From Alphaproteobacteria bacterium (lineage in GTDB: Bacteria > Pseudomonadota > Alphaproteobacteria > UBA9219): a stretch of 64,000 nt of DNA. This document shows positions 27,328-45,345 of this stretch, piece after piece. The translations under genes were made by a program, and so were the position numbers. Location: positions 10,206 through 74,205 of the forward strand of contig JAVEZQ010000008.1 in assembly GCA_034002905.1 (NCBI GenBank). Direction: 5' to 3'. Under the pieces are notes generated by a model. That model was not told the origin of the DNA and ran no database searches. It saw only the letters and a program-made list of their open reading frames with translations. The number at the start of each line of letters is the position of its first letter. Position 1 is the first letter of the stretch.

Positions 27328-27407
27328 CTAATTCATTTCTGTAAGGAGTCGAGGCTCTGTCTATACTCTTTTTATGAGGGTCTGTCGAGGTAGCCTTCTT
27401 TGCTTTC

Positions 27408-28235
27408 TCAAAAGAACCCGCGTAAAACCCCGTCTATAAGTGCCATAAGCTTCTGTCCCTTAGAGAGTTTAACCGGTTCGGCTAGCGGATCACGCTTCGT
27501 CAGTTCGCGCAGGAGTTCGTCAGCCACATTGTTAATCACAGCCGTATCGATACGCAGCATGCGGTTCTTGACTTGGGGCGGGAAGGTGTGCGCGAGGTCC
27601 ATCATAGGGCCCATCTTGTCGATCATATCGTTGAAAACAGAACGCAGGGAGGGACTAGAGGTTTTTGCCTTGACATCGTCAATGGTCGCACCGCGTGCCG
27701 CTAGCATATCTAGCGGGATATAAAGGCGGTTGAGTTCGCACAAATCTGTAGCGCAGTCTTGTATGTGGTTGGTGATTTGAAGGACACTGCATAGCGCATC
27801 ATTCGCGGGCCAAGACGCATGATCCTCCCCGTGGAGATCAAGCAAGTAACGCCCTACAGGTGCAGCGGAATAGCGGCAATAATCTAAAAGCTCTTCCCAG
27901 TTTTTATAACGTAGTTTGGTTACGTCGCGCTTGAAGGCAACGAGGAGCTCCCGCGCATGATCGGAGCTGACGCCTGTTTCTTTGAGGCTATTGCGTAGCG
28001 GGATCACGCTCTCGATGCTGTTGTCCGACTCATTCATCAGGGCTGCATCAAATTGGTCGAGACGCAGGATCTTTTCTTCAGGCGACAAAGTTTCGCTGTC
28101 GCTGATATCGTCGGCAGCGCGGGCAAAGCTGTAATAAGCCGCGACGTGCGGCCTGTGCGTTTTATCAATGAGTTTGGTGACAGGAAAGTTCTCTGTCGTT
28201 TCATTCTTGCCGCTTGGCATTTCAATGGGGGGCAT
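27408..28235 (-). CDS. hpnC: Hydroxysqualene synthase HpnC (squalene/phytoene synthase family)
   Basis: It has YSFARAADDISD and is a paralogue of the adjacent hpnD. I prefer the ATG at 28235; the ORF-track GTG at 28295 would overlap hpnB by 50 nt. Confidence 0.8.
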   Translation of the reverse strand: MPPIEMPSGKNETTENFPVTKLIDKTHRPHVAAYYSFARAADDISDSETLSPEEKILRLDQFDAALMNESDNSIESVIPLRNSLKETGVSSDHARELLVAFKRDVTKLRYKNWEELLDYCRYSAAPVGRYLLDLHGEDHASWPANDALCSVLQITNHIQDCATDLCELNRLYIPLDMLAARGATIDDVKAKTSSPSLRSVFNDMIDKMGPMMDLAHTFPPQVKNRMLRIDTAVINNVADELLRELTKRDPLAEPVKLSKGQKLMALIDGVLRGFF

Positions 28236-28245
28236 GTCTTGTCTT

Positions 28246-29376: not shown

Positions 29377-29385
29377 AGGACAACC

Positions 29386-30393
29386 TTAAAAATACCCGTA
29401 TTCGCCAAACCACTGGACCGCATCGCGAAGGGCGTCTGTCGCCTCTCGCGGTGCATAACCGAGCGCCGTTTTGGCTTTGTCCGAAGAAAAGAACATTTTC
29501 TTTTTGGACATGCGAAGCCCGTCGACGGTCACGAACGGTTCTTTCTTGGTTAGGCGCGCTATAAACTCGGCTATATGTGCGATGGGAATAAGAGGGCCAT
29601 GCGAAAGCTTGAAGAGCGGAGGGTTGCGCCCTGTTAGTATGGCTATGATCTTGAGGATTTCAAGCAGCTCCATATTCTCGCCGCCCAGAATATAGCGTTC
29701 GCCGATTTTCCCTTTTTCAAGGGCGAGCCAGTGTCCCATCGCCACGTCATCGACATGAACAATGTTCAGGCCTGTTTCAACATAGGCGGGCATACGTCCT
29801 GCTGCTGCCTCGACGATAATGCGTCCGGTTGGCGTGGGTTTTAGATCGCGGGGGCCGATGGGTGTCGAAGGATTGACAATCACGGCGGGAAGGCCCTGTG
29901 TCGCCGCCATGGTCCTTACAACGTCCTCGGCCAGATATTTGGAGCGTTTGTAAACCCCGATCATATTGTCGATGGACACTGGCGTCGTTTCCGTGCCTGG
30001 CTTTCCATCGGGCGGGATACCAAGCGTCGCGACAGAGCTGGTATAGACAATTTTTTTGATGCCTGCTTTGACAGCCCCATTCATCAGGGCCTTGGTTCCT
30101 TCGACATTGATCTTGTTCATCGCTTGTTCGTCGGGAACCCAAATTCTGTAATCCGCCGCAACATGGAACAAATAATCGCATCCCTCAAGTTTCCCTATAT
30201 AGCTTTCGGGATCGGCGAGGTCGCCTTCGACAAGTTCGAAGTTTGTTTTGAGGCCGAGCAGATTTCGCCGGTCATTATTCTTTCGCGAAAGGAGGCGAAG
30301 TCGGTGCCCCTTGCTTTCCAATAGAGAGGCAACGGCTGCGCCAACAAACCCTGTTGCGCCTGTAACAAAGGTGAGGGGGGCGTTCTCGTTCAT
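29386..30393 (-). CDS. hpnA: Hopanoid-associated NAD-dependent sugar epimerase/dehydratase HpnA
   Basis: It has a Rossmann TGATGFVGAAV and YxxxK (YKRSK), and is the first gene of hpnABCDE. Confidence 0.8.
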   Translation of the reverse strand: MNENAPLTFVTGATGFVGAAVASLLESKGHRLRLLSRKNNDRRNLLGLKTNFELVEGDLADPESYIGKLEGCDYLFHVAADYRIWVPDEQAMNKINVEGTKALMNGAVKAGIKKIVYTSSVATLGIPPDGKPGTETTPVSIDNMIGVYKRSKYLAEDVVRTMAATQGLPAVIVNPSTPIGPRDLKPTPTGRIIVEAAAGRMPAYVETGLNIVHVDDVAMGHWLALEKGKIGERYILGGENMELLEILKIIAILTGRNPPLFKLSHGPLIPIAHIAEFIARLTKKEPFVTVDGLRMSKKKMFFSSDKAKTALGYAPREATDALRDAVQWFGEYGYF

Positions 30394-30947
30394 TAATTTA
30401 GGTTAAACGTGAAGGTTATACCCGAACAATTTGCTGGGATCGAAGAAACGCCTATTGCGCTGAGGTCATTAAAAGCTACGCCATCGACGATAGCCTCAAC
30501 AAGTCCTGGATCACGGCCCACACCAGTCGTTTTGGTCAGTATGGTTCCGCAGACGTCGGCTGGAAGGTTCGGGTCCAAAACGATCTGAAACTGTGTTGAA
30601 GTCGATATCAAAACGCGCACGGGCGTTCCGAAATCCGTTCTGGGTATCACCGAGGTAGGATCCTCAAACATTTCTCTTGGAAAAGATCCTGCGTTCACAA
30701 GCATTTGTGTAATATCGGTTCCGGGAGCGGAAGTAAAAGCGCTTCGACCACTGTAAAGTTTACGGATGTTTTGTGCGATGACAGCTATGTGTTGGATAGA
30801 GTTTTGCGTCGAAGCCTCTCGTCGGACAACGCTTGTTGCCGCCCAGATGCCGCTGAGAACGAGGCCTATAATGCCAAGGACAATGGCGGCTTCGATCAGC
30901 GTGAAGGCTTGACGTCGCAAAGGCATTGAAAGGGCAGGGGCTCTCAT
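30393..30947 (-). CDS. Type IV pilin-like / T2SS pseudopilin-like protein (prepilin-type N-terminal methylation domain)
   Basis: RRQAFTLIEAAIVLGIIGLVLSGIW is a class III (prepilin peptidase) signal with E at +5. It is about 180 aa. The stop overlaps the hpnA ATG as TAATG. Confidence 0.7.
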   Translation of the reverse strand: MRAPALSMPLRRQAFTLIEAAIVLGIIGLVLSGIWAATSVVRREASTQNSIQHIAVIAQNIRKLYSGRSAFTSAPGTDITQMLVNAGSFPREMFEDPTSVIPRTDFGTPVRVLISTSTQFQIVLDPNLPADVCGTILTKTTGVGRDPGLVEAIVDGVAFNDLSAIGVSSIPANCSGITFTFNLN

Positions 30948-31136
30948 GGGGTAGACTCTCCGTTTCTCTGTAGAGATGCTCGGACTTTATATCTTTTCTT
31001 TCCTTAAGACAAGTTAACGAATTATCAACCCAACTGACCGTTAATCAGGCTAGGGTTCTTCTTTGTCTTTTTACAGGGGCAAAGCGGAGCGAGGCGGTTA
31101 ACGCGTTGCCGCCATTGTTCTTATGGGGTGAGGTGT

Positions 31137-32870
31137 ATGCGATCAGGGGTTCTCCTATTTCTGTTGCCGCTTGTCTTGATGGCCGCTTGTTCGGATATCG
31201 ATGTCTCTAAGGCACGTTCGACTACGGGGCGCGCGCCTTCGGTTGCTGAGGTTCCTGATGCTGATGAAACTGTGCGTGGGCCAGATGATCCACCCATCGT
31301 CACACTGGACATTGGATCGCGGTTGAAAGAGCGTCCTTTAACGCGGTCAGAAACTTTGCCAGGGGGAATAATAGTCCCCAATACAAATTTGAAAGCTGTT
31401 CCGGTTACGGCTGCGTTACAGGCCGTGTTAGATGGAACCGATGTGTCCTTGTCATGGGATTCGAGCAATTTCGAAAGCCGACTGGTTACGGTTACAAATT
31501 TGAGTGGTTCGCTGCCCGTTGTTGTGCGGAAGATATGCACGTCGGCCAAAGTTTTCTGCAGTTACCGCAATGGCCTTTTAGAGCTTAAGGAGCGGGAAAC
31601 CTTTGTGATAGATTTGCCCTCCATCCCAACAAAGTCAGGTGCGGCGGGCGCAACGAACACTATGGCGGATACGATAAGCCTCTTGTCTGGAGATCAGGCC
31701 AAGATAGATAATCAGGGCGGGAACCTTCTTTATACGACGGATGTTGAAGGATATGAACATGTCCATGAATATCTGGATCAATTACGTCATGGACGCCCTC
31801 TCATTGTAATGCAGCTTTATATTTGGGAAGTGACGCTCAACAACGATCATGCAACGGGCATTAACTGGAAGAGCTTTAGTCTGGACGAGTTTGGTGGGCC
31901 CATGGAGAAATTGGCCATCAGTGGGTTGACCGGCTTTACGAGCCTGACAAGTCCGGGGGTCAGTCTTGGGGCGAAGCTTACGGGACGTGTTGATGCCGAT
32001 ACCGTTCTTCAATTTCTTGCAACGCAGGGGCAGGTGCAGACGGTTAGTAATCCACAGCTTACCTTTGTTTCCGGATCAAACGCGGAGTTTCGGGTTGGCG
32101 GTAAGCAACGTTATATCGCGCAGGTCGGCCAGCTTACCTCAAGCGTTTCGGGCACGTCGAGTTCGGGTGTCGGAACCAACACAGTTTCTACCGAAAGTAT
32201 TGATACCGGTCTAACGATCACAACAAGCGGCCTTTATGAGGGGGGAGTCATTTCCGCACTTCTTGAATTGACGACACAGGATGTTGTGAGCCTCAATCCA
32301 ACCACAATGGAAAGTGGTGTTACCGTTGACCTTCCCGAAACTTCGGAGCGCAAGGTCTCGACATCCATTCGTGTTCGGCCCGGAGACAATCTTGTTCTTG
32401 CGGGTCTTGTAACATCACGTGATGTGAATGACCGTGATGGGATTCCTCTTCCTTTTGGAGCTAGAGTTCCAACCTTTTCACGTGATCAACTCAAGAATAC
32501 AGAGCTTGTGGTTTTGGTTAAACCATCTGTTGTTGTTTTTGCCGAGAAAAAGATCGACCCTGAAGCGGAGAAACTCAAAGAACGCATGAAAGATGCGCTG
32601 AGCGAGCAAACGGCCGTTGTTATCGATAAGGACGGGACAAAGATGATGCAGATTCCTGCTGATCAGGGATTGCAGACACCGACTGTTCCTGCTCCCTATC
32701 GCGCTGAGTTGATGGTGCCATATGACGGTCGTGCGCAGCCGGTTCAGCCGATGCCTTTGACTCCTTCAGAAAACGGAACAGCAATTGATGGACGCATGAT
32801 GCAAGGAGGGTTTGGTCAGGCTTTTCGTGAATTGAGCGAGCCGGATGATGGTCAAGTGGTGAAACAGTGA
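31137..32870 (+). CDS. Secretin (GspD/PilQ family) with an N-terminal lipoprotein signal
   Basis: It has an LVLMAAC lipobox, an N0-like region, and a C-terminal secretin domain (NPQLTFVSGSNAEFRVG ... IRVRPGDNLVLAGLVTSRDVNDRDGIPLPFGARVPTFSRDQLKNTELVVLVKPSVV). A strong Shine-Dalgarno precedes the ATG at 31137; the ORF track starts at a GTG at 31128. Confidence 0.85.
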   Translation: MRSGVLLFLLPLVLMAACSDIDVSKARSTTGRAPSVAEVPDADETVRGPDDPPIVTLDIGSRLKERPLTRSETLPGGIIVPNTNLKAVPVTAALQAVLDGTDVSLSWDSSNFESRLVTVTNLSGSLPVVVRKICTSAKVFCSYRNGLLELKERETFVIDLPSIPTKSGAAGATNTMADTISLLSGDQAKIDNQGGNLLYTTDVEGYEHVHEYLDQLRHGRPLIVMQLYIWEVTLNNDHATGINWKSFSLDEFGGPMEKLAISGLTGFTSLTSPGVSLGAKLTGRVDADTVLQFLATQGQVQTVSNPQLTFVSGSNAEFRVGGKQRYIAQVGQLTSSVSGTSSSGVGTNTVSTESIDTGLTITTSGLYEGGVISALLELTTQDVVSLNPTTMESGVTVDLPETSERKVSTSIRVRPGDNLVLAGLVTSRDVNDRDGIPLPFGARVPTFSRDQLKNTELVVLVKPSVVVFAEKKIDPEAEKLKERMKDALSEQTAVVIDKDGTKMMQIPADQGLQTPTVPAPYRAELMVPYDGRAQPVQPMPLTPSENGTAIDGRMMQGGFGQAFRELSEPDDGQVVKQ

Positions 32871-34207
32871 TGAGAGATTTTATTCTGCGAGGTGGTTTTG
32901 TTGTTATCTGTCTGCTCTTTCTGCAGCAGCCAGTTTGGGCTGCACGTGACGCGGCGTTCGTCTCTCCATCGGCGGGTTCTGCAAGCGGAGCTTCTCCTGA
33001 CAGTCTTAAGGTTGAGCCCAAGAACGAGGTCGATGTTGGCGAAACGCCTGTCAATCTTGGCCGTCGTGCGACGTTCTTCTTTATAAACCAAACAGGGCAA
33101 GTCATTAATATCGAGAAAATTTCTGCAAATGGCGATAGCAATGTTAAAGCTGAAATCGTCGGAGATGATTGTTCGCGTACGAAAGCAATTTCCATTGCCA
33201 GTCGTTGTTCGGTGACAGTTGAGGCAACGCCAACCGGTTCAGGTTCATGGTCGGCCGAATTGCTTGTGACACACGATGCCCCCGACCGTATTGCCCGCGT
33301 GCGCATCATTGGAAAGACGGGAGGCAATCAAAAGGAAAGGCGTGACTTGGGGCTTTCTCTGAGCACAAAAGATATCAAGCCTATTGATTTCGGAGAAGTT
33401 GAAGTCGGGACAGATAAAGCTGTGCGCACGGCGCTTATGGTCAATGACAGTAACGAGAACATCAGTATTTTGTCGGTTGAAGTGATCGCGCCTGAAAACG
33501 GGCTAGAGCGGTTGGATCAAGGGTGCTTGCCGGATATGGATCTTAAAGTGGGTGAGTCTTGCCCCGTGACATTGATGTGGCAGCCCGAGGCTCGCGGCAT
33601 GATCTCGACTGACCTGATCATTCGTCATACGGGACAGCTTGGCTTTGCGGTTATTCCCATTCGCGGTAAGGCAAAGGAACCCGTGGCCGATCCTTCACTG
33701 GCAGGAACGGCATCGGGGGGGGCAGGAAAAGGAGCTCCTGTTAAGATGCCTGATCTGAATGCCCCGCCGACACTGGATGATATCCAGCGTGAGATGCAAG
33801 GGAATCTTAGCCCGCTCTCTATTGCTGGCGAGCAAGCAGAAATGGTCCAGCGACGAAAAACGAAACCAAGCGAGGACGCTAGCTTAGGATCCTATCAACT
33901 GATCGGAACTGTTGGTAACCGCGCTATCATCATAAAGCCGGATGGATCGACCGAAATTGTTTCGTTGGGGCAGGATATCCCTGAAGAAGGTGGAACTGTC
34001 AAGGTTCTCAACATAGCACCAAATGAAGCAACGATTATGCGAAAGGGTAAGAAACAGACACTCCGTTTACAACCTTCTAATTTAATGACCAACAGGGCTC
34101 TTCAGCAGCGGTCCGGGGATGCGCGTGAAAAGGATAGCCTTCAAACCAACCGAAAGCCTGCACATATGCAGGAAAAAAGTTCAGTTGATTTACCGGTGAA
34201 GAAGTAA
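32870..34207 (+). CDS. GspC/PilP-like periplasmic secretin-associated protein with two N-terminal Cys-pair beta-sandwich repeats
   Basis: It has an N-terminal hydrophobic signal. Two tandem repeats of about 110 aa each carry a C-x10-C pair (DDCSRTKAISIASRCSV and QGCLPDMDLKVGESCPV). The C-terminus YQLIGTVGNRAIIIKPDGSTEIVSLGQDIPEEGGTVKVLNIAPNEATIMRKGKKQTLRL matches the PilP/GspC HR-domain pattern. The start overlaps the secretin stop. Confidence 0.5.
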   Translation: MRDFILRGGFVVICLLFLQQPVWAARDAAFVSPSAGSASGASPDSLKVEPKNEVDVGETPVNLGRRATFFFINQTGQVINIEKISANGDSNVKAEIVGDDCSRTKAISIASRCSVTVEATPTGSGSWSAELLVTHDAPDRIARVRIIGKTGGNQKERRDLGLSLSTKDIKPIDFGEVEVGTDKAVRTALMVNDSNENISILSVEVIAPENGLERLDQGCLPDMDLKVGESCPVTLMWQPEARGMISTDLIIRHTGQLGFAVIPIRGKAKEPVADPSLAGTASGGAGKGAPVKMPDLNAPPTLDDIQREMQGNLSPLSIAGEQAEMVQRRKTKPSEDASLGSYQLIGTVGNRAIIIKPDGSTEIVSLGQDIPEEGGTVKVLNIAPNEATIMRKGKKQTLRLQPSNLMTNRALQQRSGDAREKDSLQTNRKPAHMQEKSSVDLPVKK

Positions 34208-35982
34208 TGGACGATTTTTTATCAAGTGATTCCGCTGAAGGGGATGCAGGGCAAGTTATTGCCATTCACGATGCGCATCTTGATAATGTCAAACCGCGTC
34301 ATTATGAGCTCGCGCTGGCCGAGCAGGCAATGCGTCGTACTACGGGGCGTTATCTTTCGATAGAGGAAATTCTCAGGCGCAATGGTTTCGTCGTAGAAGG
34401 CAGTAAGAGCATGCATGGCCGAAATGGCGTGCGTGAGGACCTTACGATGCAGTCCTTGCGTCTGTATGTTTCTGTGGCAACGCAGGCAGCCATGGGGCTT
34501 TGCTTGCTCGAACTCAAAGATGGTGTATTACGGATTGCTGTTGGAGATCGTGTTGACGATGCCGATCTTTTGCGCGTTTCGGCAAGCCTTGCACGTGCCC
34601 ACCATCAGGTCGACAAGATCGAGGTCGAGCCGTGGGACAAGACAGACTTTGCTCGGTTGATGCGCGAGCAGAGCGAAGTCGCGGGTGAAAGGCTTTTACG
34701 CGTTTTTTCGATGCTCAGCAAAGATCCTGATGATGCAATGCTGATTGAACAAGCGTTGCATGACGTTTTAGCTGAAGCCCTGCAAACGCGTACTTCGGAT
34801 ATTCATTTTTCACTGCAAGAAGATGACGCGCGTTGCTGGATACGGTACCGTATTGATGGCGACTTGGTTTATAAACATTTGATACCACATCGCGTTATGG
34901 CCCCCTTAGTCACGCGCATTAAAACTGACTCCAAAATGGACGCCGCCGATCGTCAGCATCCGCAGGACGGGCGTCTTGGGTTTGAATGGCAGGGGCGTGT
35001 GATCGACGTTCGTGTTGCAACCTTGCCTGTCGCTCCTTCTGGCGAAAAACTCACCCTCCGATTGCTTGATCGTGAAAATCTGCGCAGTTTTGACGAGTTG
35101 TTTATGCATGCGCCTGTTGTGGCGGAGAAGCTACGGCGGGCTGTTCATGGCCATACGAAAGATGGCGGCTTGATTGTTGTGAGCGGTCCAACCGGTTCTG
35201 GTAAGTCAACGACACTTTATGGCGTCATTCAGGAAATTGATCGTTCGGCAAGAGCGGTTTATTCGGTTGAAGCACCTGTTGAATATGATATGCCTCTGGT
35301 TGACCAGACTTCGGTTACCGATAATTCGGCGAACACGATTGCCGATATTATTCGTGCCCTGATGCGCCATGATCCAGATGTGATTATCGTCGGCGAAATG
35401 CGTGATGGCGACACAGTTGAGGCCGCATTGCGTGCGACTGAATCTGGACACTTGGTTATTACCACAGTTCACGCTGTTGACGCTATTCATACACTTGATC
35501 GTATGGACGGGTTCCTTAGCTCTGACTATCGTACAAGTGGTCTTTACATTTTGGGTCATGCCCTTGTGGCTTCTCTTTCGCAACGTCTGGTTAAAACCGT
35601 ATGTCCGGCTTGTCACCAGACCGAAGAAGCCCTTCGTGTATTTGGCTCGGCTGAGCGATGCAATGATATAGGCGTTTTGCCTGATGATAAGGTTGCCTTG
35701 GCCAACGGTCAGGGGTGTGACCTGTGTAATCGAACAGGATTTTTAGGGCGAACGTTGATTCTAGAAGCGCTTTTCCCTCCCGAGGATCAGGCCAGCCGGC
35801 GTGCAATTACCGAGATGCTTGTCTCGAACGTTTCATCTTCGATCGTCGATGTGCCGGGCACTTTTTTCTTGCCGCGTCGCGAGTCCATACGTGATTTGAT
35901 TCGTCGCAAAGCTGTTGATGCCAATATGGGCGCCTCTTTGATGGTAGAAGAGGCAACGGTTCGTCACAACCGTATGAGGTAG
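34207..35982 (+). CDS. gspE: Type II secretion / type IV pilus assembly ATPase (GspE/PilB family) with a C-terminal tetracysteine motif
   Basis: It has an N1-like domain, ASDIHF and QDGRLGF..RVATLP motifs, a GPTGSGKST Walker A, an Asp box, a VIIVGEMRD Walker B, a GHLVITTVHA His box and CPAC-x27-CDLC. Confidence 0.9.
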   Translation: MDDFLSSDSAEGDAGQVIAIHDAHLDNVKPRHYELALAEQAMRRTTGRYLSIEEILRRNGFVVEGSKSMHGRNGVREDLTMQSLRLYVSVATQAAMGLCLLELKDGVLRIAVGDRVDDADLLRVSASLARAHHQVDKIEVEPWDKTDFARLMREQSEVAGERLLRVFSMLSKDPDDAMLIEQALHDVLAEALQTRTSDIHFSLQEDDARCWIRYRIDGDLVYKHLIPHRVMAPLVTRIKTDSKMDAADRQHPQDGRLGFEWQGRVIDVRVATLPVAPSGEKLTLRLLDRENLRSFDELFMHAPVVAEKLRRAVHGHTKDGGLIVVSGPTGSGKSTTLYGVIQEIDRSARAVYSVEAPVEYDMPLVDQTSVTDNSANTIADIIRALMRHDPDVIIVGEMRDGDTVEAALRATESGHLVITTVHAVDAIHTLDRMDGFLSSDYRTSGLYILGHALVASLSQRLVKTVCPACHQTEEALRVFGSAERCNDIGVLPDDKVALANGQGCDLCNRTGFLGRTLILEALFPPEDQASRRAITEMLVSNVSSSIVDVPGTFFLPRRESIRDLIRRKAVDANMGASLMVEEATVRHNRMR

Positions 35983-35988
35983 GGAGAA

Positions 35989-37212
35989 ATGAAGCTATTT
36001 CATGCAAAATATGTCCAGCAAACAACAGGTGGCGGTTCCTTGGTTCAGGAGGAAGACTTTTATTTGCCTGACGAACGTGCAGTCCGCCATTTGCTGAGGA
36101 GCAAAGGGTATTGGCCCGTGGTCATTCAGGAACAAAAACCTCCCTTGTTTGAATGGATGGATGTTCGTTCGCGTGAATGGCAGATGCAACTTCTCAGAGC
36201 TATCCGTTTCCAGTCCGCGACCGCATCGGCTGGAACGGCGTTGATGAACATTATCGAGGGAGAAGATGACCCAAGGCGTCGTTTGGCCTTTCTTCCAACG
36301 CGAACAGTTTTGAAAGGTGGAGGGTCTTTTTCCGAGGCATTGCGCGAACTCAAGCTAATGGACGCGCCAACTATGGCCATCATCACCGCAGGAGAACGCG
36401 CTGGGGACCTCAAAGGTGTTATTCAGCATGCTATTGAGCATGTCGAGCAAAAAGGAAGCCAGTACAAGGCCGTTATTGCAGCATTGAGCTGGCTTTCTTT
36501 TGATATCATCTCGGTGGTGGGTACCATTTGGGGGAACCAATTTGGGTTTATTCCTTATTTGAAAGCGCAGGGGACAAAAAGCACAGAGCCTGGGGCTGCC
36601 GAAAAATTCGAAAATGCCGTTCAGATTGTCAGTGCAATCAATGGGACAATGCTGTTTGTCTCTTCGGTTATTATTCTGGCGGTTGTCTTTTTTGGCATAT
36701 CTTATTGGCGGAATAGACACAAACAGGACCACTTAACATCTCGGCTCATGATGAATATTCCGATGCTTTCAAGCTATTTTCAAAACATGAACATGAAGGA
36801 CACTTGCAAGCTGATGTCTCGACTTCTTCATGGTAAAGTGAATCTTTCGGATTCTTTAAAAATTATTATTGATAGCTCTGTCGAGCCGTCGACACGTTTT
36901 TATTGGTTGACTTGTCAGGCTAAAATCTTGGGCGGTATCGAGCCTGCGCGCGCTTTAGCTCAGTGGCCGTTGACAAAGGCTGAAAGAGATCAGATTGTCA
37001 CGATTCAAATGGTCGACCAACTTAGTGAGGTGTACGCGGCAATCGCAGAAGAACGTAATTTAATGGCCAAGACAGACCAAAGAAAAATCATCAAATTTGG
37101 CATGTTTATGCTTTTTGCTTTGTCTGGCATTACCGTTCTGACAACGATATACTTGCTCATGCTCCAGAATCAGAGTTTCCTCAATTCTATCAATGAAATG
37201 CGTGGTGGCTAA
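35989..37212 (+). CDS. gspF: Type II secretion system F-family inner-membrane platform protein (GspF/PilC-like)
   Basis: It is a 407-aa polytopic protein with the T2SSF signature GGGSFSEAL ... ITAGERAGDL and a second repeat. Confidence 0.8.
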   Translation: MKLFHAKYVQQTTGGGSLVQEEDFYLPDERAVRHLLRSKGYWPVVIQEQKPPLFEWMDVRSREWQMQLLRAIRFQSATASAGTALMNIIEGEDDPRRRLAFLPTRTVLKGGGSFSEALRELKLMDAPTMAIITAGERAGDLKGVIQHAIEHVEQKGSQYKAVIAALSWLSFDIISVVGTIWGNQFGFIPYLKAQGTKSTEPGAAEKFENAVQIVSAINGTMLFVSSVIILAVVFFGISYWRNRHKQDHLTSRLMMNIPMLSSYFQNMNMKDTCKLMSRLLHGKVNLSDSLKIIIDSSVEPSTRFYWLTCQAKILGGIEPARALAQWPLTKAERDQIVTIQMVDQLSEVYAAIAEERNLMAKTDQRKIIKFGMFMLFALSGITVLTTIYLLMLQNQSFLNSINEMRGG

Positions 37213-37213
37213 T

Positions 37214-38302
37214 ATGCTCAAAGCGCTGGTGGACGCCGTCAAGGCCTATTGGAACAGCCTCGGAACCAAGGTTGACCCTCTTGCTGCAGAATTGGGGTTG
37301 CTTAGTGTCGAGAGACCTCAACTGGACAGAAACAAGAATTCTGTTGCAATGATGCAGTCACTTGTCGGAGGCATGGTTGGGGTTGCCGATTACTATTTCC
37401 CAGCTGATATTCTGGGAGGGTGTTGTCCCCGTATTCAAGGTGAAGAACAAAACATCGTTTGGAATGCAGCCGCCGAGGCTTTGGATACAGAGCGCGTTCA
37501 CTTGGTATGGCAGGCCAAGAAGGACAAAATATATTATTTGGCGGTGTCATCTGAAAGCATCCGTTCGCATCCCAACACCTGGTGTCCGTTTTGTTCCCTT
37601 TTGCCCGGAATGGATGATGCGGCCATCCCGCCAACTATATACACTCATTATAGCGAAGAAGTGGCCACAATGATGGCTATCACATCAGATTCGCTTACGA
37701 TTCATCGTGGTACTTCGTCGGTTATCCGGGCGAAAGCGGAGCGGCTTGCACGAGAAAATAATAATGCGCCCCTTATTGACATGGTTCCCGACCTGATTCA
37801 ATCGTTGCAGCCGGTTCCATGGTATTCCGTTTCGCTGTTTGAGGATCGTGCGCGGCGAATTTTGTCGACCCTTATGGTCTCCTCTGCGATAATTTTTACA
37901 ACCATAGCCCTTTTTGTTTGGTTTGTTGCAGCGGTCTCTACGTTGAATGCCAAGGTCGATCTCGAAGAAATACGAGAACGCAGCAATGTAAAGACGATCG
38001 AATTGATGAAAAAGGTGCAGGAGCATCGTGCGAGCCCTATGCGAAAGCAAATAGCGAGTTTTGCAGATCTCAATGATGGCCTTCTCGCCCTGAACGGATA
38101 TTTAGAGATGTATCAGATTGTAAAAGGAAGGGTTCTCTGGCGTGCAATTGTTCCAGGTAACGTTACCGCTGAACGCATCAAAGAGCTCGGTGGGCAGACT
38201 CTTGGTAACGCAGATATGGGTGTTATAATCGGAAATTCTCCCGATGCTTTGGGATCGGATCGTTCTGGCGATTCTAAGGGTCGTGGTGGTAGGAGGAGGT
38301 AA
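37214..38302 (+). CDS. GspL-like bitopic protein (cytoplasmic domain, one TM, periplasmic domain)
   Basis: A cytoplasmic part of about 215 aa is followed by a single TM (ILSTLMVSSAIIFTTIALFVWFVAAV) and a periplasmic part of about 130 aa. It sits right after gspE/gspF. The assignment rests on topology, size and synteny only. Confidence 0.4.
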   Translation: MLKALVDAVKAYWNSLGTKVDPLAAELGLLSVERPQLDRNKNSVAMMQSLVGGMVGVADYYFPADILGGCCPRIQGEEQNIVWNAAAEALDTERVHLVWQAKKDKIYYLAVSSESIRSHPNTWCPFCSLLPGMDDAAIPPTIYTHYSEEVATMMAITSDSLTIHRGTSSVIRAKAERLARENNNAPLIDMVPDLIQSLQPVPWYSVSLFEDRARRILSTLMVSSAIIFTTIALFVWFVAAVSTLNAKVDLEEIRERSNVKTIELMKKVQEHRASPMRKQIASFADLNDGLLALNGYLEMYQIVKGRVLWRAIVPGNVTAERIKELGGQTLGNADMGVIIGNSPDALGSDRSGDSKGRGGRRR

Positions 38303-38304
38303 AA

Positions 38305-38826
38305 ATGTCACTGGATTTTTCTTCCTTACCCAAGATTCTCAGCCCGGCAATTCTAACAAGGGCCGTTCGTTCTTTTGACAAGACAGTAACCCTTTTTGTA
38401 TCTGTTGGTTGGGGGGCGGTCATTGTTGTTTGGATTCTTGCGATTTATACTATTCATTTGTCGGTAACAGCTCGTTCTCAGTTAGCTGAAGCTTCTGCAA
38501 AGGAACCAAGCCTGCCCATCATAGAGAAGACATCTGTGCCTGCCCGACAAATCGAAAAAGTTATGGAGAGGCTTAAGAAAAAGTTTCCTGACGTTACCGT
38601 CAGCGCCGCGCGTGATTCGTCAGTCAATATTATCGGGACTGAGGGATCGCGGTTTAAAAGCTGGATGTACGCCTTGAGTTATATTGAGATTATATCTCCT
38701 GAATATTACTGGGAAATCAAGGAGATGTGCGTTGGCGCCCATTGTGGGGCTAATTCGTTGATGAAGGTTGTCTTGACTCCTCAGAAAATCATTTTCAAGG
38801 CACCGGAAGTTTCCTCTGACCCCTAA
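38305..38826 (+). CDS. GspM/PilO-like small bitopic protein
   Basis: It is 173 aa with a short cytoplasmic N-terminus, a TM (VTLFVSVGWGAVIVVWILAIYTI) and a periplasmic domain. The assignment rests on topology and synteny only. Confidence 0.35.
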   Translation: MSLDFSSLPKILSPAILTRAVRSFDKTVTLFVSVGWGAVIVVWILAIYTIHLSVTARSQLAEASAKEPSLPIIEKTSVPARQIEKVMERLKKKFPDVTVSAARDSSVNIIGTEGSRFKSWMYALSYIEIISPEYYWEIKEMCVGAHCGANSLMKVVLTPQKIIFKAPEVSSDP

Positions 38827-39024
38827 GACATTCTGCCCTTTCTCAGAGGAATCTTATTGACATTAGGGACGGATATCTTACCTTCGGCAGGATATTTAGG
38901 TAATACGGTGCTTGATTCGTGTTTTGTGGTGGCCTATTGGTAATGATTAGTTAAGAATCGTCTTGTAGCTTTTCTACAGTTTATGTGTAGTCATAGCTCA
39001 AGGCTTGACAGCTAGGGGACGAAG

Positions 39025-39684
39025 ATGAGGCGATTGGACGAGAGTCTGTATGAGAACAAGTTGCCAAGCGATGCTGGTATTGCCATTGGACCAATTCTGT
39101 TCATCATCGCGGTTTTGGGTATTCTAGCGGCAGCTATCGCGGCGGGAAGTGGTTCCTTTACGACCAATACTCACGGTGAAAATACCAGAACAAGAGCAAC
39201 GGCCATGATTGATATTGGCCAGAACTTGAAAATTGGTATGGACCGTGTTGTCGGTCTAGGCACTGACATTGTGGATGTCGTTATCGATCCGACGGTGACG
39301 TCCGGCGACGATGCGATCTTTTCGCCGATAGGTGGTGGTATTTCGGCTCCTTCGGTAACAATGGCGGCGGATGCGTCATCTGATACGTGGCACTATCCGA
39401 CGATTGCTGTCCCAGGAATAGGTACGGCATCAGGAAGTCGTGTTGCTGTTCTCCGTGTAACCGATGTTGTTTGCGATGAAATTAACTCCAAGGTCAATGC
39501 CATGGCTGCTGGCACGGCCAGTGGTGCTGCAGTGGATATTGGTGATTTTACGTCAACAGCTGTGAATGACGGTGCGGCATGGCCCAGTGATTTTGACGGA
39601 AAGCCAGTTGGATGTGTCTATAACAGCAATTCCACCTCGATCGCTGCGGGTTTCTATTTCTATCAGGTTTTGGCGGTCGAATAA
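39025..39684 (+). CDS. Pilin-like structural protein with a non-canonical leader (candidate major (pseudo)pilin of the cluster)
   Basis: A charged N-region (MRRLDESLYENKLPSDAG) is followed by an uninterrupted 23-aa hydrophobic segment (IAIGPILFIIAVLGILAAAIAAG) with no Glu at +5. The body is Gly/Ala/Ser/Thr-rich with two Cys about 50 aa apart near the C-terminus. It is followed by the strongest terminator in the window. Confidence 0.45.
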   Translation: MRRLDESLYENKLPSDAGIAIGPILFIIAVLGILAAAIAAGSGSFTTNTHGENTRTRATAMIDIGQNLKIGMDRVVGLGTDIVDVVIDPTVTSGDDAIFSPIGGGISAPSVTMAADASSDTWHYPTIAVPGIGTASGSRVAVLRVTDVVCDEINSKVNAMAAGTASGAAVDIGDFTSTAVNDGAAWPSDFDGKPVGCVYNSNSTSIAAGFYFYQVLAVE

Positions 39685-39704
39685 TGTGACGCTTGAGTGA
39701 ACCA

Positions 39705-39740
39705 AAAACGCCCCCGTCGAAGGGGGCGTTTTTATTTTTA
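39705..39740 (+). terminator. Strong rho-independent terminator after the pilin-like gene
   Basis: ACGCCCCCGTCGAAGGGGGCGT followed by TTTTATTTTTAT. Confidence 0.8.
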
Positions 39741-39844
39741 TGCTCACAATTTAATGGACATTTTAGACTAACCCTATGGAATAGCTAATCCTTCGTGTAA
39801 GTCATATCGCGTTCGTCTATGATTATTAACCAAACGCACGAAAC

Positions 39845-39880
39845 TAATTAAAAACTCTTTAACTGATTGGGATATAATAG
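39845..39880 (+). promoter_or_regulatory. Candidate sigma70-type promoter for the giant-protein operon
   Basis: A perfect TATAAT hexamer lies at about 39873-39878 in an AT-rich tract, about 90 nt upstream of the ATG at 39969. The -35 element is unclear. Confidence 0.3.
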
Positions 39881-39968
39881 TTAAATGGTGCGGGGTTTAT
39901 CTAATTAGCGGTAAGTTATCGGATCCCATGGCAAGGCTTTACGGCAATAGACAGTAAGCAGGTGTTGA

Positions 39969-42641
39969 ATGCTCTCATCCAAAAAAGAGAATGACCAAAG
40001 GGACGATCAGAATAAAGCGCCGTCGATTTGGGGGCTTCTTTTTAATCCGCAGTTTGGAAAAGACATTGCGCCACTTAGAGATAGCTTCTTTATGTTTGCT
40101 CGTATCATCGCCTCTTTGTTTGCGATGGTTGGATTGTTCCCGCGTGATCATGCCGCGTTTGTAAGCAATGAAGTGAGGCTTTCCTTACGCGAGGTTATGG
40201 GTACAGCCTATGCCAATTTGCGTTTTACAAGGGAGGGTTTGCCCCAGATCCTTTACTTTGCTGCCGTGGTTGGCTGTTTGGCCTTCTCTCTTCTTTTCGT
40301 TTTGACGCTGCTCTTTTCCTTTTTGATCCCTGAGGCACATGCCCAAATCTTTCAGGCGCCAGGAACTCAGAACGGCACAAATTGCGATTTGGCCCAGCTT
40401 TGGCTTGGGTACCTTTTTTTGGGGCATGATATAAATGCTGCTCAAGGGTGCGGTTATGTTGCTGCGGGATCGAGCGTAGCGGCAACGCTTGCTCCAAACG
40501 GTAATGCCATCCAAATTGCGGTTGGCGATGCTTTGCGTTTTTTCAGTAACGGCGTGTTGGTTCTTGCGGGCATCATCCTGCTTTATCATCTTGTGGTCAT
40601 GGTGATCGACACAGCGCACACAGCGCGGTTTATGGGGCGAGCCAATCAGGTCTGGGCGCCGCTACGCCTTATTTTTGCTATTGGTTTGTTGGTGCCAATT
40701 GCTGTTTCGGGTAGTGGTGTGACAGGCCTCAATACGGGACAATATATTGCCATCCAGATGGCGCGTTGGGGCTCTGGCTTTGCGAGTAACGCGTGGGTGC
40801 GACTATTAGATGGGTATTCCCAGCATATCAATGCGCAAAGTATTCGTATGCCTCCCCCTCCGTTTACGGACGATTTTGTCCGACAGGCGCTACTTTTTAA
40901 TGCCTGCCGCCGTGTTTATAACCAATATGTGACAAGTCAGGAGCTTCCAGAGGACTATATTGTCAGGATCGATGTCACGAACCCAACTAATACACAGCGG
41001 GGCGAAATAAATTTTGTCAGCGATAACGGCAATGTTCGTTGTGGCACGATAACATATGCCAACCCGACAGCAGATGGTCGTGTCGGGGACTTATCGAACC
41101 TGAATGCGAGTGTTCGTAACGCTGTTTGGACTGTGATCAGAAATTTTGTGGAAGACTCAAATACGCTGTTTTACAGAACATCTGGTTCTGCCATGCTTTA
41201 CATGGATGACGGATATACTGAAAGTGCACAGGGGCAGTATGAAACTGACAACGAAGTCATCGTTCAAAATGTAAATCAACTTCTCACTGATTTTTCCAAT
41301 GATGTTCAAGACGCGATAGCCAGAGCTTTAGATGTCACAAGCGTAAGTGGGGTAAAAAGTCTTCAGAGCATCATGCAGACGGTATCAACTCAATGGGGCA
41401 ATCAGGGCTGGGTGATGGCTGGTGCGTGGTACAACACCATTGCCAATGCGCAGACGCGACTGTTCCAAATTGTCAACGGCTCGTTTGATACAATGTTTTC
41501 GTCGGCTAAGCTTGAATATAGCGCGTGGTCAGATGAGACAAGCCGAGAAAGTGGCTATCGAAGCATCGATGAAGATGTCACGCGCATCGTCGGCAATTAT
41601 GGTTCTTTGATACAACAGGCTAATCCACGCACGCCTCAACAACTTGCTGCTTTGGGAATGGACCCTCTGACTGATGCCTCGTTTAACGGGTTAATGGGTG
41701 CCTTTTTAAACGCTGTTGATTATATGGCCGTCAAAATGAATGTCTGGGAAGCAGGTAATCAACTTGGCTTCGAGTTCGGTAATGACGTGAACCCCATGTC
41801 CGAGCTTGTGTCATTTGGTGCGAAACTTTTAACACTTGGTCTTGATCTTCTCAGTTATGCCATCGGCGGGTCTGCGTTGGCCTCTGTCGGTGGCGCAGCC
41901 CTTGCGGGCGTCTCGATGAGTGTGTTTAATCCTGCTGCTGGCGCTATGGGAGCTATGGCGGCCCTTATGCTAGGCGATGTTATCAGGTCCTTGGCGGGGT
42001 TGGGGATCACCCTTGGGGCTCTCTTGATCGGTGCGGGGATCATGTTGGCCTATGCTTTGCCTTTGATGCCGTTTATCCGCTTTTTCTTCCACGTCATTAC
42101 ATGGCTTCTTACCGTTTTTGAATCGGTGGTCGCCATGCCCATTCTGGCGCTTGCGCATGTAACACCATATGGTGAAGGACTGCCGGGACAGATGGCACAA
42201 CGAGGCTATTTTATGATCCTGAGCATTTTCCTGCGGCCGATCTTGACTGTGATCGGTTTAATCGCTGGGTTCTTGCTGTTTTTTGTTGCGATCTATTTCC
42301 TGAATATTTCTTTCTCGGTTGCAATTAACGGCATTGGTGCTTTCCCAAGTGGCTTTGATGTTTTGTCCAAGATCATCTTCTCGATTATCTATGTCGTTTT
42401 GGCATACATATGCGCCAACAATTGCTTCAAGACGATCGGTTACTTTGCCGAGCAGGCGATGAACTGGATGAATGCTGCCGCAGCCTTGGGTGTTGGTATG
42501 GGCGATAGAGGCATGATGAGTACAGCGCTCGGTGCCACGACAACGTTCATGGGGAAGAATATGGGCAATACCTTGAAGGGGGCCGGAGATTCTGTGGCCG
42601 GTCGCGCACAGTCATTTATTGGCACACCGGGTAAGAAGTAA
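39969..42641 (+). CDS. Large polytopic membrane protein of unknown function (paralogue A, 890 aa)
   Basis: Four N-terminal TM segments include an internal signal-peptidase-like FLIPEAHAQ motif. A periplasmic domain of about 370 aa contains PPPP and NxxVRCGxIT motifs. Six or more C-terminal TM helices follow. A good Shine-Dalgarno is present. It is about 45% identical to the next gene. Confidence 0.85.
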   Translation: MLSSKKENDQRDDQNKAPSIWGLLFNPQFGKDIAPLRDSFFMFARIIASLFAMVGLFPRDHAAFVSNEVRLSLREVMGTAYANLRFTREGLPQILYFAAVVGCLAFSLLFVLTLLFSFLIPEAHAQIFQAPGTQNGTNCDLAQLWLGYLFLGHDINAAQGCGYVAAGSSVAATLAPNGNAIQIAVGDALRFFSNGVLVLAGIILLYHLVVMVIDTAHTARFMGRANQVWAPLRLIFAIGLLVPIAVSGSGVTGLNTGQYIAIQMARWGSGFASNAWVRLLDGYSQHINAQSIRMPPPPFTDDFVRQALLFNACRRVYNQYVTSQELPEDYIVRIDVTNPTNTQRGEINFVSDNGNVRCGTITYANPTADGRVGDLSNLNASVRNAVWTVIRNFVEDSNTLFYRTSGSAMLYMDDGYTESAQGQYETDNEVIVQNVNQLLTDFSNDVQDAIARALDVTSVSGVKSLQSIMQTVSTQWGNQGWVMAGAWYNTIANAQTRLFQIVNGSFDTMFSSAKLEYSAWSDETSRESGYRSIDEDVTRIVGNYGSLIQQANPRTPQQLAALGMDPLTDASFNGLMGAFLNAVDYMAVKMNVWEAGNQLGFEFGNDVNPMSELVSFGAKLLTLGLDLLSYAIGGSALASVGGAALAGVSMSVFNPAAGAMGAMAALMLGDVIRSLAGLGITLGALLIGAGIMLAYALPLMPFIRFFFHVITWLLTVFESVVAMPILALAHVTPYGEGLPGQMAQRGYFMILSIFLRPILTVIGLIAGFLLFFVAIYFLNISFSVAINGIGAFPSGFDVLSKIIFSIIYVVLAYICANNCFKTIGYFAEQAMNWMNAAAALGVGMGDRGMMSTALGATTTFMGKNMGNTLKGAGDSVAGRAQSFIGTPGKK

Positions 42642-42675
42642 AGAAATGGCACGCTGTGGATTTTGACTTAAAGGA

Positions 42676-45345
42676 TTGGGCATGATGGCAATAGCATATG
42701 GTCAGGCTTTAAAGACATTCGGTCGTTGGCTATTGTCGCCCGGCTATGCAACGGAGTTTGGCGCTATCCGGCGCGCTTTGCGCTCTTTTGCGCACATGCT
42801 TGCAAGTTTGTTTGCCACTGCGGATCTGTTTCCATCAACCCACTGCGCCTTTTACAATGAAAACGAACCTTTATCATTACGAGATGTGCTTCGGACGGCT
42901 TATTCGAATCTTGAGTGGTCATGGGTGGCTTTCCCAAAGATCCTCTATTTTGTTTCAGTTGTCGGAACCCTGATCCTTTCTTCTCTTTACGTTGTAACGC
43001 TAGGTTTGTCCTTTTTGATACCTGAGGCGCAAGCCCAGATGTTTGATCCCCCTGATCCGGGGTGCGATTTTGCGCATATTTGGATCAACTATTTATTCCT
43101 TGGTGATACAGGGGCCCAGTCGCCGAGTTGTACAGATGGCGGCATTATGTATCCCAACGGAAACAACATGCAGATTGCGATGGCTGATACACTCCATCTG
43201 TACAGTTTGGGTATCCTTGTCTTCGCCGGATTTACGCTCTTATATCATTTGCTCTCGATGGTAGCCCATACCGCCAACACAGGAACGCCAATGGGTCAAC
43301 AAGCTAATCAGTTCTGGGCGCCTGTCCGTCTTGTTGTTGCCATTGGTCTTTTGGTTCCTGTTACAGCCTATCAAGATATACAGGGACTTAATACGGGACA
43401 GTATATTGCTATTCGTTTGGCGCGCATGGGTTCCGCGTTGGGAAGTAACGCGTGGGAAATCGTTATGAGCCGTTTTTCAGATCATATGACCGAACTCGGC
43501 ATGCATGTTCCGCCGCCGCCCAATATTGATACCTTGGTCCGACAGGTCCTTCTCGATGAAGCCTGTATGGCCCTTTATAACCAGATGATCAGCCGGCCTG
43601 AGACAAAGATTGACCAGAATGAATATAGAGTTCAGCGTCTTATCCTTGATAGTGCCGGCGAGAATATGGGTGCAGAAGACGCCGTTGCCGTCGCCTATGT
43701 AAGTGAGAACAACAAGGTCCGGTGCGGTTCTATTACATTGCCACGCGAACCACTGGTCAATGGTCAACCCGCCGGAGGATATCAAACCGCTGTGTGGCAG
43801 GCGGCCCGTGCAGCCTTCTTTACTTTTCTGAATTCACCCGAGCTAGAGCAAATTGCACGGGCTTCTCTTTCGAACCTGCGCCCAACTTATCGTGGAGTGA
43901 ATGAAACATATATTGAACCTCAAGAGGTGTACACTCGCGCAACAAACTTGATCACCGCAACGCGCAATGATTACCAGCAGCGAATTGCTGCGGCGTTGGG
44001 GGCCGCGAATCTGAATAATAGCCAAGTTGTTATTGACGTTAACGAAATTTCGGAAAACTGGGTTCAGGAGGGTTGGGTCATGGCGGGTGCGTGGTTCAAT
44101 ACCATCGCGCGCGCTCAGGCGGCCATATTTAACTCCCTTTTGTCCAGCGTGACTTATGCCTATCATCCTATGCTCATTGAAGAGGCGTCCTTCGTCGACA
44201 GATTTACGGGTAATTCAAGTTCGCGTGATGTAGGCGATGAAGTCAAACGAGCGGTTGCCTTGTTTAAATCCGTTGTTGATAAAGCTGGAACAGACCCCAC
44301 TCCTGCTCTTGCTGCTTCCCAAATGAGCCCAGTGACGTCTGCTCAGCCTAACAAGGCTGTCCAGTCCTTCTTGACCTTTGTTTATGACCTGGGTGTTCAG
44401 TATGGTCTTTGGACAGGAACGGGCCTTGTCTATAATTTTGGAAACACAATGAATCCAATGATGGAAGTCGCTGCGATTGGGCAAAGGCAGGTGGCCATGG
44501 CTTCCGATCTTCTAGCTGTTGGTATGATAGGCTCACAAGTGGGGGGGCCCATTTCAGGAATAACATTGAGCGAAGTTGATGCCAGATCTTTTGGCAAAGG
44601 CTCATCATGGATGCAGTCTTTGCAGGACCGAGCGATCACTATTGGTATGTCAACCATGGCCCCTGAACTTGTTCGAACCGTATCAACCTTTGTTGTGGCT
44701 GTTGGCGGCGTCCTGTTCACATCGGGATTGTTTTTGGCTTATTTGTTGCCATTGATGCCGTTTTTCCGGTTTTTCTTCCATGTTTTGACATGGATTCTCC
44801 TTTTGTTTGAATCAATCGTTTCAATGCCGCTGTTGGCCCTTGCTCATGTCAATCCATATGGGGATGGACTGCCGGGCCAAATGGCGACGCGTGGCTATTA
44901 TATGTTGCTTAGCATCGTGCTGAAGCCGATCTTAATGGTCATCGGGTTGCTTGCCGGGTTCTTGATTTTCTTTATTGCGATCAACTTCCTCAATCTTGCC
45001 TATGGTATAGCGGTCGGATCCCTCTTTCATCAGGCCTCGTCGATGGCTATCATCTCGAATATCATTTTTTCGGTCATCTATACGGTTATTGCTGTGATTT
45101 GCGCGAATAACAGTTTTAAGACGATTGGCTACTTCTCTGAGAATATCATGTCGTGGATTGGGGCCGCATCGGCTGGTGGACGTCAGTCTAACCTTGGAGA
45201 TCCGGGCACGATGCATCAACGGTTTATGCAGGCGGGGGGCTTTATTTCGGGTGCCATGATGGGCGGAGCCATGACATCGACAGCCGAAGTCAAGCAACGC
45301 GTGGCCCAGATGCAGCAAAATCAAATCAAGGGCGGGAACAAATAG
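42676..45345 (+). CDS. Large polytopic membrane protein of unknown function (paralogue B, 889 aa)
   Basis: The architecture and conserved blocks match paralogue A (FLIPEAQAQ, PPPP, NNKVRCGSIT, EGWVMAGAWFNTIA, LPLMPFFRFFFHVLTW...LALAHVNPYGDGLPGQMA). Confidence 0.85.
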   Translation: MGMMAIAYGQALKTFGRWLLSPGYATEFGAIRRALRSFAHMLASLFATADLFPSTHCAFYNENEPLSLRDVLRTAYSNLEWSWVAFPKILYFVSVVGTLILSSLYVVTLGLSFLIPEAQAQMFDPPDPGCDFAHIWINYLFLGDTGAQSPSCTDGGIMYPNGNNMQIAMADTLHLYSLGILVFAGFTLLYHLLSMVAHTANTGTPMGQQANQFWAPVRLVVAIGLLVPVTAYQDIQGLNTGQYIAIRLARMGSALGSNAWEIVMSRFSDHMTELGMHVPPPPNIDTLVRQVLLDEACMALYNQMISRPETKIDQNEYRVQRLILDSAGENMGAEDAVAVAYVSENNKVRCGSITLPREPLVNGQPAGGYQTAVWQAARAAFFTFLNSPELEQIARASLSNLRPTYRGVNETYIEPQEVYTRATNLITATRNDYQQRIAAALGAANLNNSQVVIDVNEISENWVQEGWVMAGAWFNTIARAQAAIFNSLLSSVTYAYHPMLIEEASFVDRFTGNSSSRDVGDEVKRAVALFKSVVDKAGTDPTPALAASQMSPVTSAQPNKAVQSFLTFVYDLGVQYGLWTGTGLVYNFGNTMNPMMEVAAIGQRQVAMASDLLAVGMIGSQVGGPISGITLSEVDARSFGKGSSWMQSLQDRAITIGMSTMAPELVRTVSTFVVAVGGVLFTSGLFLAYLLPLMPFFRFFFHVLTWILLLFESIVSMPLLALAHVNPYGDGLPGQMATRGYYMLLSIVLKPILMVIGLLAGFLIFFIAINFLNLAYGIAVGSLFHQASSMAIISNIIFSVIYTVIAVICANNSFKTIGYFSENIMSWIGAASAGGRQSNLGDPGTMHQRFMQAGGFISGAMMGGAMTSTAEVKQRVAQMQQNQIKGGNK

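Follow-up and report, generated by a model that had tools for sequence, protein, structure and literature searches.

What are the two adjacent genes of nearly equal length that lie directly downstream of a pilus-like gene cluster in an alphaproteobacterial genome, and do they belong to a secretion apparatus? The window, by which we mean the whole stretch analysed, comprises 64,000 nucleotides of contig JAVEZQ010000008.1 (assembly GCA_034002905.1, lineage UBA9219). The genes in question, here called A and B, are adjacent, on the same strand and both intact (Table 1). A preliminary description made from the sequence alone had recorded two adjacent open reading frames (ORFs) for polytopic membrane proteins of about 890 residues, which are indeed present where it placed them, and had assigned them to an unknown family loosely reminiscent of DotA and TraY. 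We find that A and B are diverged members of the DotA/TraY family. In our judgement they are probably functional members of it, lineage-specific tandem duplicates within a chromosomal, vertically inherited clade of Micavibrio type that has become uncoupled from type IVB gene clusters.

The NCBIfam model TIGR04346 (DotA/TraY; model length 656, cut-off 100 bits) matches A with 309.8 bits over profile positions 20-655 and B with 294 bits over positions 24-656. The sole sequence match in the PDB is DotA of Legionella pneumophila (9ngy/9nh0, 1e-18), in which residues 180-245 align with DotA 53-118 and residues 682-789 with DotA 739-844. An AlphaFold2 model of A, computed from a 20-sequence alignment, likewise has a sole significant Foldseek match, the DotA chain of the DotA-IcmX protochannel (probability 1.0, E 2.8e-12). 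Searching a plasmid collection gave 516 matches, all 516 of them under genes annotated 'DotA/TraY family protein' (21-35% identity, partial coverage), and many relatives already bear this name from the NCBI and JGI pipelines. The DotA/TraY hunch of the preliminary description is thereby confirmed well beyond a loose resemblance. The unknown family is refuted, also on its author's own terms, a confident hit to a well-characterised family having been named there as the finding that would overturn it. Neither A nor B matched a Pfam family at E values up to 1, DUF5063 appearing below threshold only, and PADLOC returned nothing for A, B or the unnamed ORFs of the upstream cluster. That the pair corresponds to no component of a type II secretion system (T2SS) or type IV pilus (T4P) is correct, as A and B match no T2SS or T4P family. 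The likeness to VirB6/TrbL of type IVA systems, which had been put forward for checking, was not borne out: Pfam gave no TrbL or VirB6 hit in A or B at E up to 1, and Foldseek comparison with the stalk and inner-membrane-complex chains of R388 yielded E values of 1-5 only and no fold match.

The structure of Legionella DotA consists of a signal peptide, TMI, TMII, an extended periplasmic domain (residues 154-685, with five disulfides) and five long hydrophobic helices, assembled as a pentamer (PMC12501162). As far as a predicted structure can tell, A fits this plan: two N-terminal transmembrane (TM) helices are followed by a large extended domain in the periplasm and then by five long hydrophobic helices. 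Hydropathy and AlphaFold2 together predict helices at residues 180-218, 229-241, 609-644, 655-729, 740-789, 796-819 and 822-833, and the extended domain is modelled as mixed helices with a three-strand sheet at 332-363. Instead of the six or more C-terminal TM helices first proposed, the five long hydrophobic helices of the model (609-833) give the better fit, as in DotA. Conservation among 154 family members peaks in TMI-TMII and in the last four helices, and in 61 columns of their alignment conservation reaches 90% or more. The extended domain differs from that of DotA in that, in place of five disulfides, the family has a single invariant Cys pair, C313 and C358, which is conserved in 100% of the 154 sequences and lies in the NxxVRCG motif. 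Another Cys pair had been described in the first periplasmic segment. It is present (C139/C161 in A, C130/C152 in B) but specific to A and B and not family-wide, with Cys in 3-4% of the 154 sequences at these positions. The sequence motifs quoted for both proteins were all recovered, except that B reads EGWVMAGAW and not QGW.

Legionella DotA, to which A and B are ~23% identical, has a simple signal peptide, in place of which A and B have a module of ~125 aa composed of a cytoplasmic stretch and a signal anchor with an AxA motif. In A there is no N-terminal signal peptide; a cytoplasmic stretch of ~93 aa precedes a TM helix that ends in AHA/Q, where the slash marks a candidate cleavage site. 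The module (~125 aa) lies outside the TIGR04346 match, which begins at residue 176 of A. It is conserved across the chromosomal clade, some family members being without it, and in nine related loci it is free-standing beside DotA-like genes, as ORFs of 124-153 aa that cover profile positions ~7-118 and end just past the TM helix.

To place the pair among its relatives, one genome per species was scanned. From the 119 relatives that it found, 79 loci were retained, and five exact look-ups brought the set to 84 loci viewed with ~10 kb on each side (labels L001-L086 denote related loci and contigs). Nearly all relatives are metagenome-assembled genomes (MAGs) labelled Micavibrio, Pseudobdellovibrionaceae, Bdellovibrionales, Alphaproteobacteria or Rhodospirillaceae, Micavibrio being filed under Bdellovibrionales by NCBI. 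The nearest relatives of the PBP2 encoded in the window (58-70% identity) come from the same kinds of MAG. In these genomes the DotA-like genes stand among housekeeping genes and are frequently arrayed: 38 loci have one full-length copy, 8 have two, 33 have three and 1 has four. The triplets are neighboured by xseA, TerD, Na/Ca exchanger and ABC-F ATPase genes on one side and by mlaC, mlaA, lptF/G and pepA on the other, a neighbourhood kept in ~20 loci. An example is L041 (7256-15415), where, as in ~30 similar loci, three tandem DotA-like genes stand between the ABC-F ATPase gene and mlaC/mlaA/lptFG. In a neighbour-joining tree A and B are sisters within a subclade of mostly single-copy genes, and their duplication is therefore lineage-specific. 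In the same tree the first, second and third copies of the triplets each form their own orthologue group, which points to an ancient triplication whose order has been retained. Beyond these relatives the family is extensive: an exhaustive profile search returned 6358 cluster representatives at E up to 0.001, of which 4124 reached the stricter limit of 1e-30. Among the 120 best hits of a second profile search there was no named protein of Micavibrio aeruginosavorus, and none of the papers searched joined Micavibrio with DotA.

Compared with an 82%-identical orthologue, gene A has a dN/dS ratio of 0.075 at a dS of ~1.6, which indicates that the coding sequence is under strong purifying selection. 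Because of this ratio and of the many invariant positions in the family, we take the genes to be functional.

The preliminary description had also denied the presence of any further type IV secretion genes, and for this window that holds by Pfam, NCBIfam and a plasmid reference panel. The panel consisted of eleven proteins of the traM-traY region of an IncI-type plasmid (the DotI/TraM, DotH/TraN, DotG/TraO, TraQ, TraU/DotO and TraW/IcmX classes, TraY and unnamed ORFs), where the gene order is traM(dotI)-traN(dotH)-traO(dotG)-...-traQ-...-traU-traW-traY. These were compared by phmmer with six-frame translations of the window and the 84 loci, while DotB/TraJ, DotC, DotD and DotL/TrbC, outside the panel, were judged by family scans alone. 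TraY served as positive control and matched 85 of the 85 sources in 168 segments. The DotI, DotH, DotG, TraU/DotO and TraW/IcmX queries had 0 matches in the window and the 84 loci, and TraQ matched in L032 only. Within the window itself TraY was the only panel protein to match, and Pfam and NCBIfam detected no type IVB core gene. The ORFs directly 3′ of the DotA-like genes of L005, L012, L020 and L029 had no NCBIfam hit for an IcmX/TraW-like partner. As the panel missed while TraY matched everywhere, the DotA-like genes are without a local type IVB apparatus in the window and within 10 kb in 83 of the 84 loci, ~1.7 Mb in total.

A and B are 40% identical across 853 aa (BLASTP), somewhat less than the ~45% first estimated. 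For B the ATG at 42682 is most likely the start, since AAGGA lies 6 nt upstream of it and the orthologous contig L086 has TAG in place of the TTG at which the mechanical ORF begins, with the ATG-ATG kept. A is preceded by an AGGTG Shine–Dalgarno-like site 6 nt 5′ of its ATG. The region first described as an AT-rich promoter is indeed AT-rich: the 284-nt spacer 5′ of A, which has a strong terminator at its start, contains 39.8% G+C compared with 50.3% for the window. A non-coding block of 49 nt within it (39839-39887) is 100% identical to L086, while synonymous sites have diverged to a pS of 0.66, and is probably a promoter, an operator or a 5′ leader. Rfam matched the terminator hairpin alone in this spacer, below threshold, and no family at threshold. 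Set off by the strong terminator and the conserved spacer, the pair is, to judge from these signals, a transcription unit of its own.

How, then, is the pair related to the upstream cluster? The complete set (secretin, ASH-domain protein, ATPase, platform protein and the ORFs of 369, 173 and 219 aa) is found 5′ of a DotA-like gene in L003, L009, L012 and L033, and part of it in L023. These five loci all belong to the subclade of the window, at a DotA identity of just 32-37%. Four other loci of the same subclade (L001, L007, L008 and L010) do not have the cluster within ~10 kb, and ~70 other loci, including all those of other clades, show no linkage within 10 kb. Probably the subclade inherited the adjacency from its ancestor and lost it repeatedly. 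An obligatory co-occurrence with secretin/GspE clusters, which had been suggested as a check, is thus not observed, linkage being confined to one subclade. In L003 (8773-9645), L009 (8856-9746) and L033 (8541-9482) a class IV aminotransferase gene separates the cluster from the DotA-like gene, and no terminator-like site was detected between the two in L012 and L023. In L069, L078 and L083, loci without the pilus cluster, relatives of the 219-aa protein are encoded 3-5 kb away from DotA-like arrays. A functional link of the pair to the pilus-like cluster is possible, and weakly supported by the synteny.

By homology with DotA, the likeliest activity of A and B would be that of an oligomeric chamber or gated conduit anchored in the inner membrane. 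Each protein would insert by means of its N-terminal signal-anchor module and the TMI-TMII hairpin, leaving the extended domain of ~360 aa, with one disulfide, to face the periplasm. The five long hydrophobic helices could then build an oligomeric, probably pentameric, chamber, either homomeric or mixed from A and B, which together with further partners might act as a gated conduit across the envelope. A bolder version would have Micavibrio-type epibiotic predators and their uncultured relatives keep only the DotA-type protochannel, amplified to 2-4 specialised paralogues, as an envelope conduit independent of a type IV secretion system (T4SS), possibly at the predator-prey junction, and recruit it beside a type IVb-pilus-like apparatus in one subclade. 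We consider this conjecture rather unlikely as it stands.

Several observations weigh against functional DotA/TraY duplicates uncoupled from type IVB clusters. NF033886, the equivalog model for Legionella/Coxiella DotA (cut-off 500 bits), is missed by A and B with 150.4 and 151.7 bits, its best stretch being limited to the C-terminal helices. The confidence of the AlphaFold2 model is moderate (pLDDT 65.9, pTM 0.56). The Legionella DotA-IcmX protochannel does not assemble without DotG or IcmX (PMC12501162), and a stand-alone DotA channel is therefore without precedent. Our view is of 64 kb of a 226-kb contig and of ~10 kb on each side of the relatives, and further type IVB genes could be present elsewhere in these genomes. 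The outgroup locus L032 (8006-14383), from a 'Rickettsiales' MAG, has genes for a TraQ-like (IncI1) protein and for a PilT/TraJ/DotB-like ATPase flanking its DotA-like gene; no other locus has further type IVB-like neighbours, and its contig also carries a second DotA-like locus, L078. The last three points would all suit a type IVB secretion or conjugation system that is complete though dispersed; the pair would be its DotA part, and its other genes would lie outside the window. The dot/icm genes of Legionella are themselves split over several loci. Against such a system stands the panel result, no type IVB gene having come to light in the 64 kb or within 10 kb in 83 of 84 loci while the TraY control matched everywhere, and so does the plasmid arrangement, in which traW and traU are directly beside traY. 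The genome paper on M. aeruginosavorus ARL-13 moreover reports no evidence for either type III or type IV secretion systems (PMC3189940), though DotA-like genes in that strain could not be confirmed, the main text and supplements of the paper mentioning neither DotA nor TraY. Overall we regard the dispersed system as improbable but not negligible.

The preliminary description had favoured an accessory or effector-translocation role, in which the DotA-like proteins would be a working part of the adjacent type IVb-pilus/T2SS-like machine in a hybrid apparatus. What stands of this is the synteny in five further loci of one subclade, kept despite the low DotA identity, to which may be added the missing terminator-like site in L012 and L023 and the pilin-like relatives near arrays of three unlinked loci. 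There are also parallels in other systems: DotA is a VirB6-class component in the unified T4SS nomenclature, and the VirB6 pentamer of R388 has been proposed as a platform for pilus nucleation (PMC12857230). In the predator Myxococcus xanthus the pilus-like Kil machine (Tad-like) is thought to cooperate at the prey contact site with an incomplete type III secretion system that lacks the needle (PMC12428579). Those are different protein families, however, and in the window the link between the gene sets is one of synteny and is not seen in most relatives. With a separate conserved spacer as well as a strong terminator between the two units in the window, an aminotransferase gene inserted in three of the linked loci, and no cluster near the DotA-like genes in four loci of the subclade and all loci of other clades, we find a hybrid machine distinctly unlikely. 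In favour of decaying, functionless remnants of an integrated conjugative element, the family is typical of IncI-type plasmids, and several islands resembling such elements are described for Micavibrio in the ARL-13 genome paper (PMC3189940). This reading is very improbable indeed given the intact ORFs, the low dN/dS and the conserved columns, the housekeeping flanks that recur in ~20 triplet loci, and the position-specific orthologue groups. There are, in addition, no signs of mobility: no nearby tRNA, no flanking direct repeats and no integrase domain in family scans, with a G+C content of the region like that of the rest of the window. For an entirely new family, without kin among the known ones, it can be said that no Pfam family matches; this reading is ruled out by the TIGR04346 and DotA matches, and we give it practically no credence.

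Functional, duplicated DotA/TraY proteins uncoupled from type IVB clusters thus remain our preferred interpretation, and they can be set beside several known systems. Compared with Legionella, the window gene is tandemly duplicated and no dotB, dotC, dotD, DotG or IcmX genes were found nearby. TraY of IncI-type plasmids (MPF-I, plasmid NZ_CP126866.1) belongs to the same NCBIfam family, is matched by phmmer at 5e-23 (A) and 2.6e-17 (B) and has a similar length (912 aa), at 21-35% identity over partial lengths. The plasmid gene directly follows traU (DotO class) and traW (IcmX class) in the traM-traY operon, whereas the window genes are chromosomal and without such neighbours. As to the array pattern, the closest analogue is the set of tandem virB6 paralogues of Rickettsiales, which are also enlarged VirB6-class genes in alphaproteobacterial chromosomes, conserved across the order, with virB6-1 to -4 in Anaplasmataceae and five copies in Rickettsiaceae (PMC7648143). 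They differ in having a TrbL/VirB6 domain and in lying in an operon with virB3 and virB4, their type IVA system being dispersed but present (PMC7648143); the window proteins have neither a TrbL/VirB6 Pfam match nor a detectable T4SS neighbour.

The family itself is already known. What is new is the setting: in a predatory lineage of Alphaproteobacteria, chromosomal, conserved and tandemly amplified DotA/TraY genes occur apparently uncoupled from clusters of type IVB genes, which raises the question whether a VirB6-class channel is able to work outside a T4SS. According to a 2025 review, the molecular basis of epibiotic predator-prey junctions is unknown (PMC12428579). Since the clade is centred on Micavibrio, the DotA-like arrays with their position-specific paralogues are concrete candidate genes. 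For annotation, the label 'DotA/TraY family protein' in these genomes should not be taken as evidence that a type IVB system for secretion or conjugation is present.

Table 1. Positions of the DotA-like genes A and B, their parts and surroundings in the window, and of stand-alone N-terminal module ORFs in related loci
Feature	Position	Strand	Remarks
DotA/TraY-family gene A	39969..42641	+	ATG start, 890 aa
N-terminal extension module of A, residues 1-127	39969..40349	+	cytoplasmic stretch, then TM helix ending AHA/Q (AHA at 40335-40343)
TMI-TMII hairpin of A, residues 188-246	40530..40706	+	predicted; aligns with DotA 53-118; hydropathy peaks; family conservation mean 0.62
Periplasmic extended domain of A, residues 247-608	40707..41792	+	predicted; C313/C358 pair, GWVMAGAW motif; otherwise variable
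Five long hydrophobic helices of A, residues 609-833	41793..42467	+	predicted; equivalent to DotA HH1-HH5; 682-789 align with DotA 739-844
DotA/TraY-family gene B	42682..45345	+	887 aa from ATG; mechanical ORF from TTG at 42676, 889 aa; TIGR04346 2.6e-87, 294 bits; 40% identical to A; tree sister of A
Intrinsic terminator closing upstream pilus-like cluster	39704..39733	+	12-bp stem, 7 G-C pairs, then ATTTTTAT (T-run); 20 nt 3′ of 219-aa ORF stop
AT-rich 5′ spacer of DotA-like pair	39734..39968	+	conserved block 39839-39887, TATAAT at 39873-39878
PilS-type (type IVb) prepilin	30396..30947	-	Pfam PilS PF08805, N_methyl PF07963
Secretin	31128-32870	+	Pfam Secretin
Ig/ASH-domain protein	32867-34207	+	Pfam ASH
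GspE/PilB-type ATPase	34207-35982	+	Pfam T2SSE
GspF/PilC-type platform protein	35989-37212	+	Pfam T2SSF
Three family-less conserved ORFs	37193..39684	+	369-aa bitopic protein; 173-aa, N-terminal TM helix; 219-aa atypical pilin-like (39025-39684)
Stand-alone N-terminal module ORF	L020 17017-17454		
Stand-alone N-terminal module ORF	L021 15104-15541		
Stand-alone N-terminal module ORF	L022 17508-17948		
Stand-alone N-terminal module ORF	L028 12636-13028		
Stand-alone N-terminal module ORF	L029 12384-12776		
Stand-alone N-terminal module ORF	L030 12803-13264		
Stand-alone N-terminal module ORF	L075 3115-3561		
Stand-alone N-terminal module ORF	L076 2950-3375		
Stand-alone N-terminal module ORF	L078 9992-10366		

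In three outgroup loci, L005 (12596-14269), L043 (12570-14810) and L082 (12504-14171), a family-less ORF of 555-746 aa begins 20-30 nt after the DotA-like gene. No relatedness was detectable between the 557-aa protein of L005 and the 555-aa protein of L082.

The upstream cluster of the window is recognised by Pfam through its prepilin, secretin, ATPase and platform protein, every NCBIfam equivalog score lying below cut-off, and family scans detected no prepilin peptidase in the window. The ORFs of 369, 173 and 219 aa have no Pfam, NCBIfam or PADLOC hit, and orthologues of all three are present in the five pilus-linked loci. The 219-aa protein carries G/IAIGPILFII; the Gly that precedes IAIGPILFIIAVLGILAAAIAAG is invariant, Glu5 is missing and a C-terminal pair of Cys residues is conserved. 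Its family matched a pilin N-terminal helix weakly (E 0.013) in a PDB profile search, and the searches with the 369-aa and 219-aa families found nothing beyond this. The island is bounded by hopanoid genes (hpnA, hpnB) and by dut/coaBC. The rest of the 64 kb is of housekeeping character, with pyk, phoH, atp genes, psd, pssA, kdsA, accA, def and rmuC, and further with hpnCDE, a hybrid kinase, mreCD, pbp2, nagA, bamB and der. The hopanoid cluster (25199-30393, minus strand) consists of hpnC, hpnD and an hpnE-like gene followed by hpnB and hpnA, and directly abuts the prepilin gene. The PilS-type prepilin (30396-30947, minus strand) has Ala at position -1 of its cleavage motif (RRQA/FTLIE), where Gly is the usual residue.

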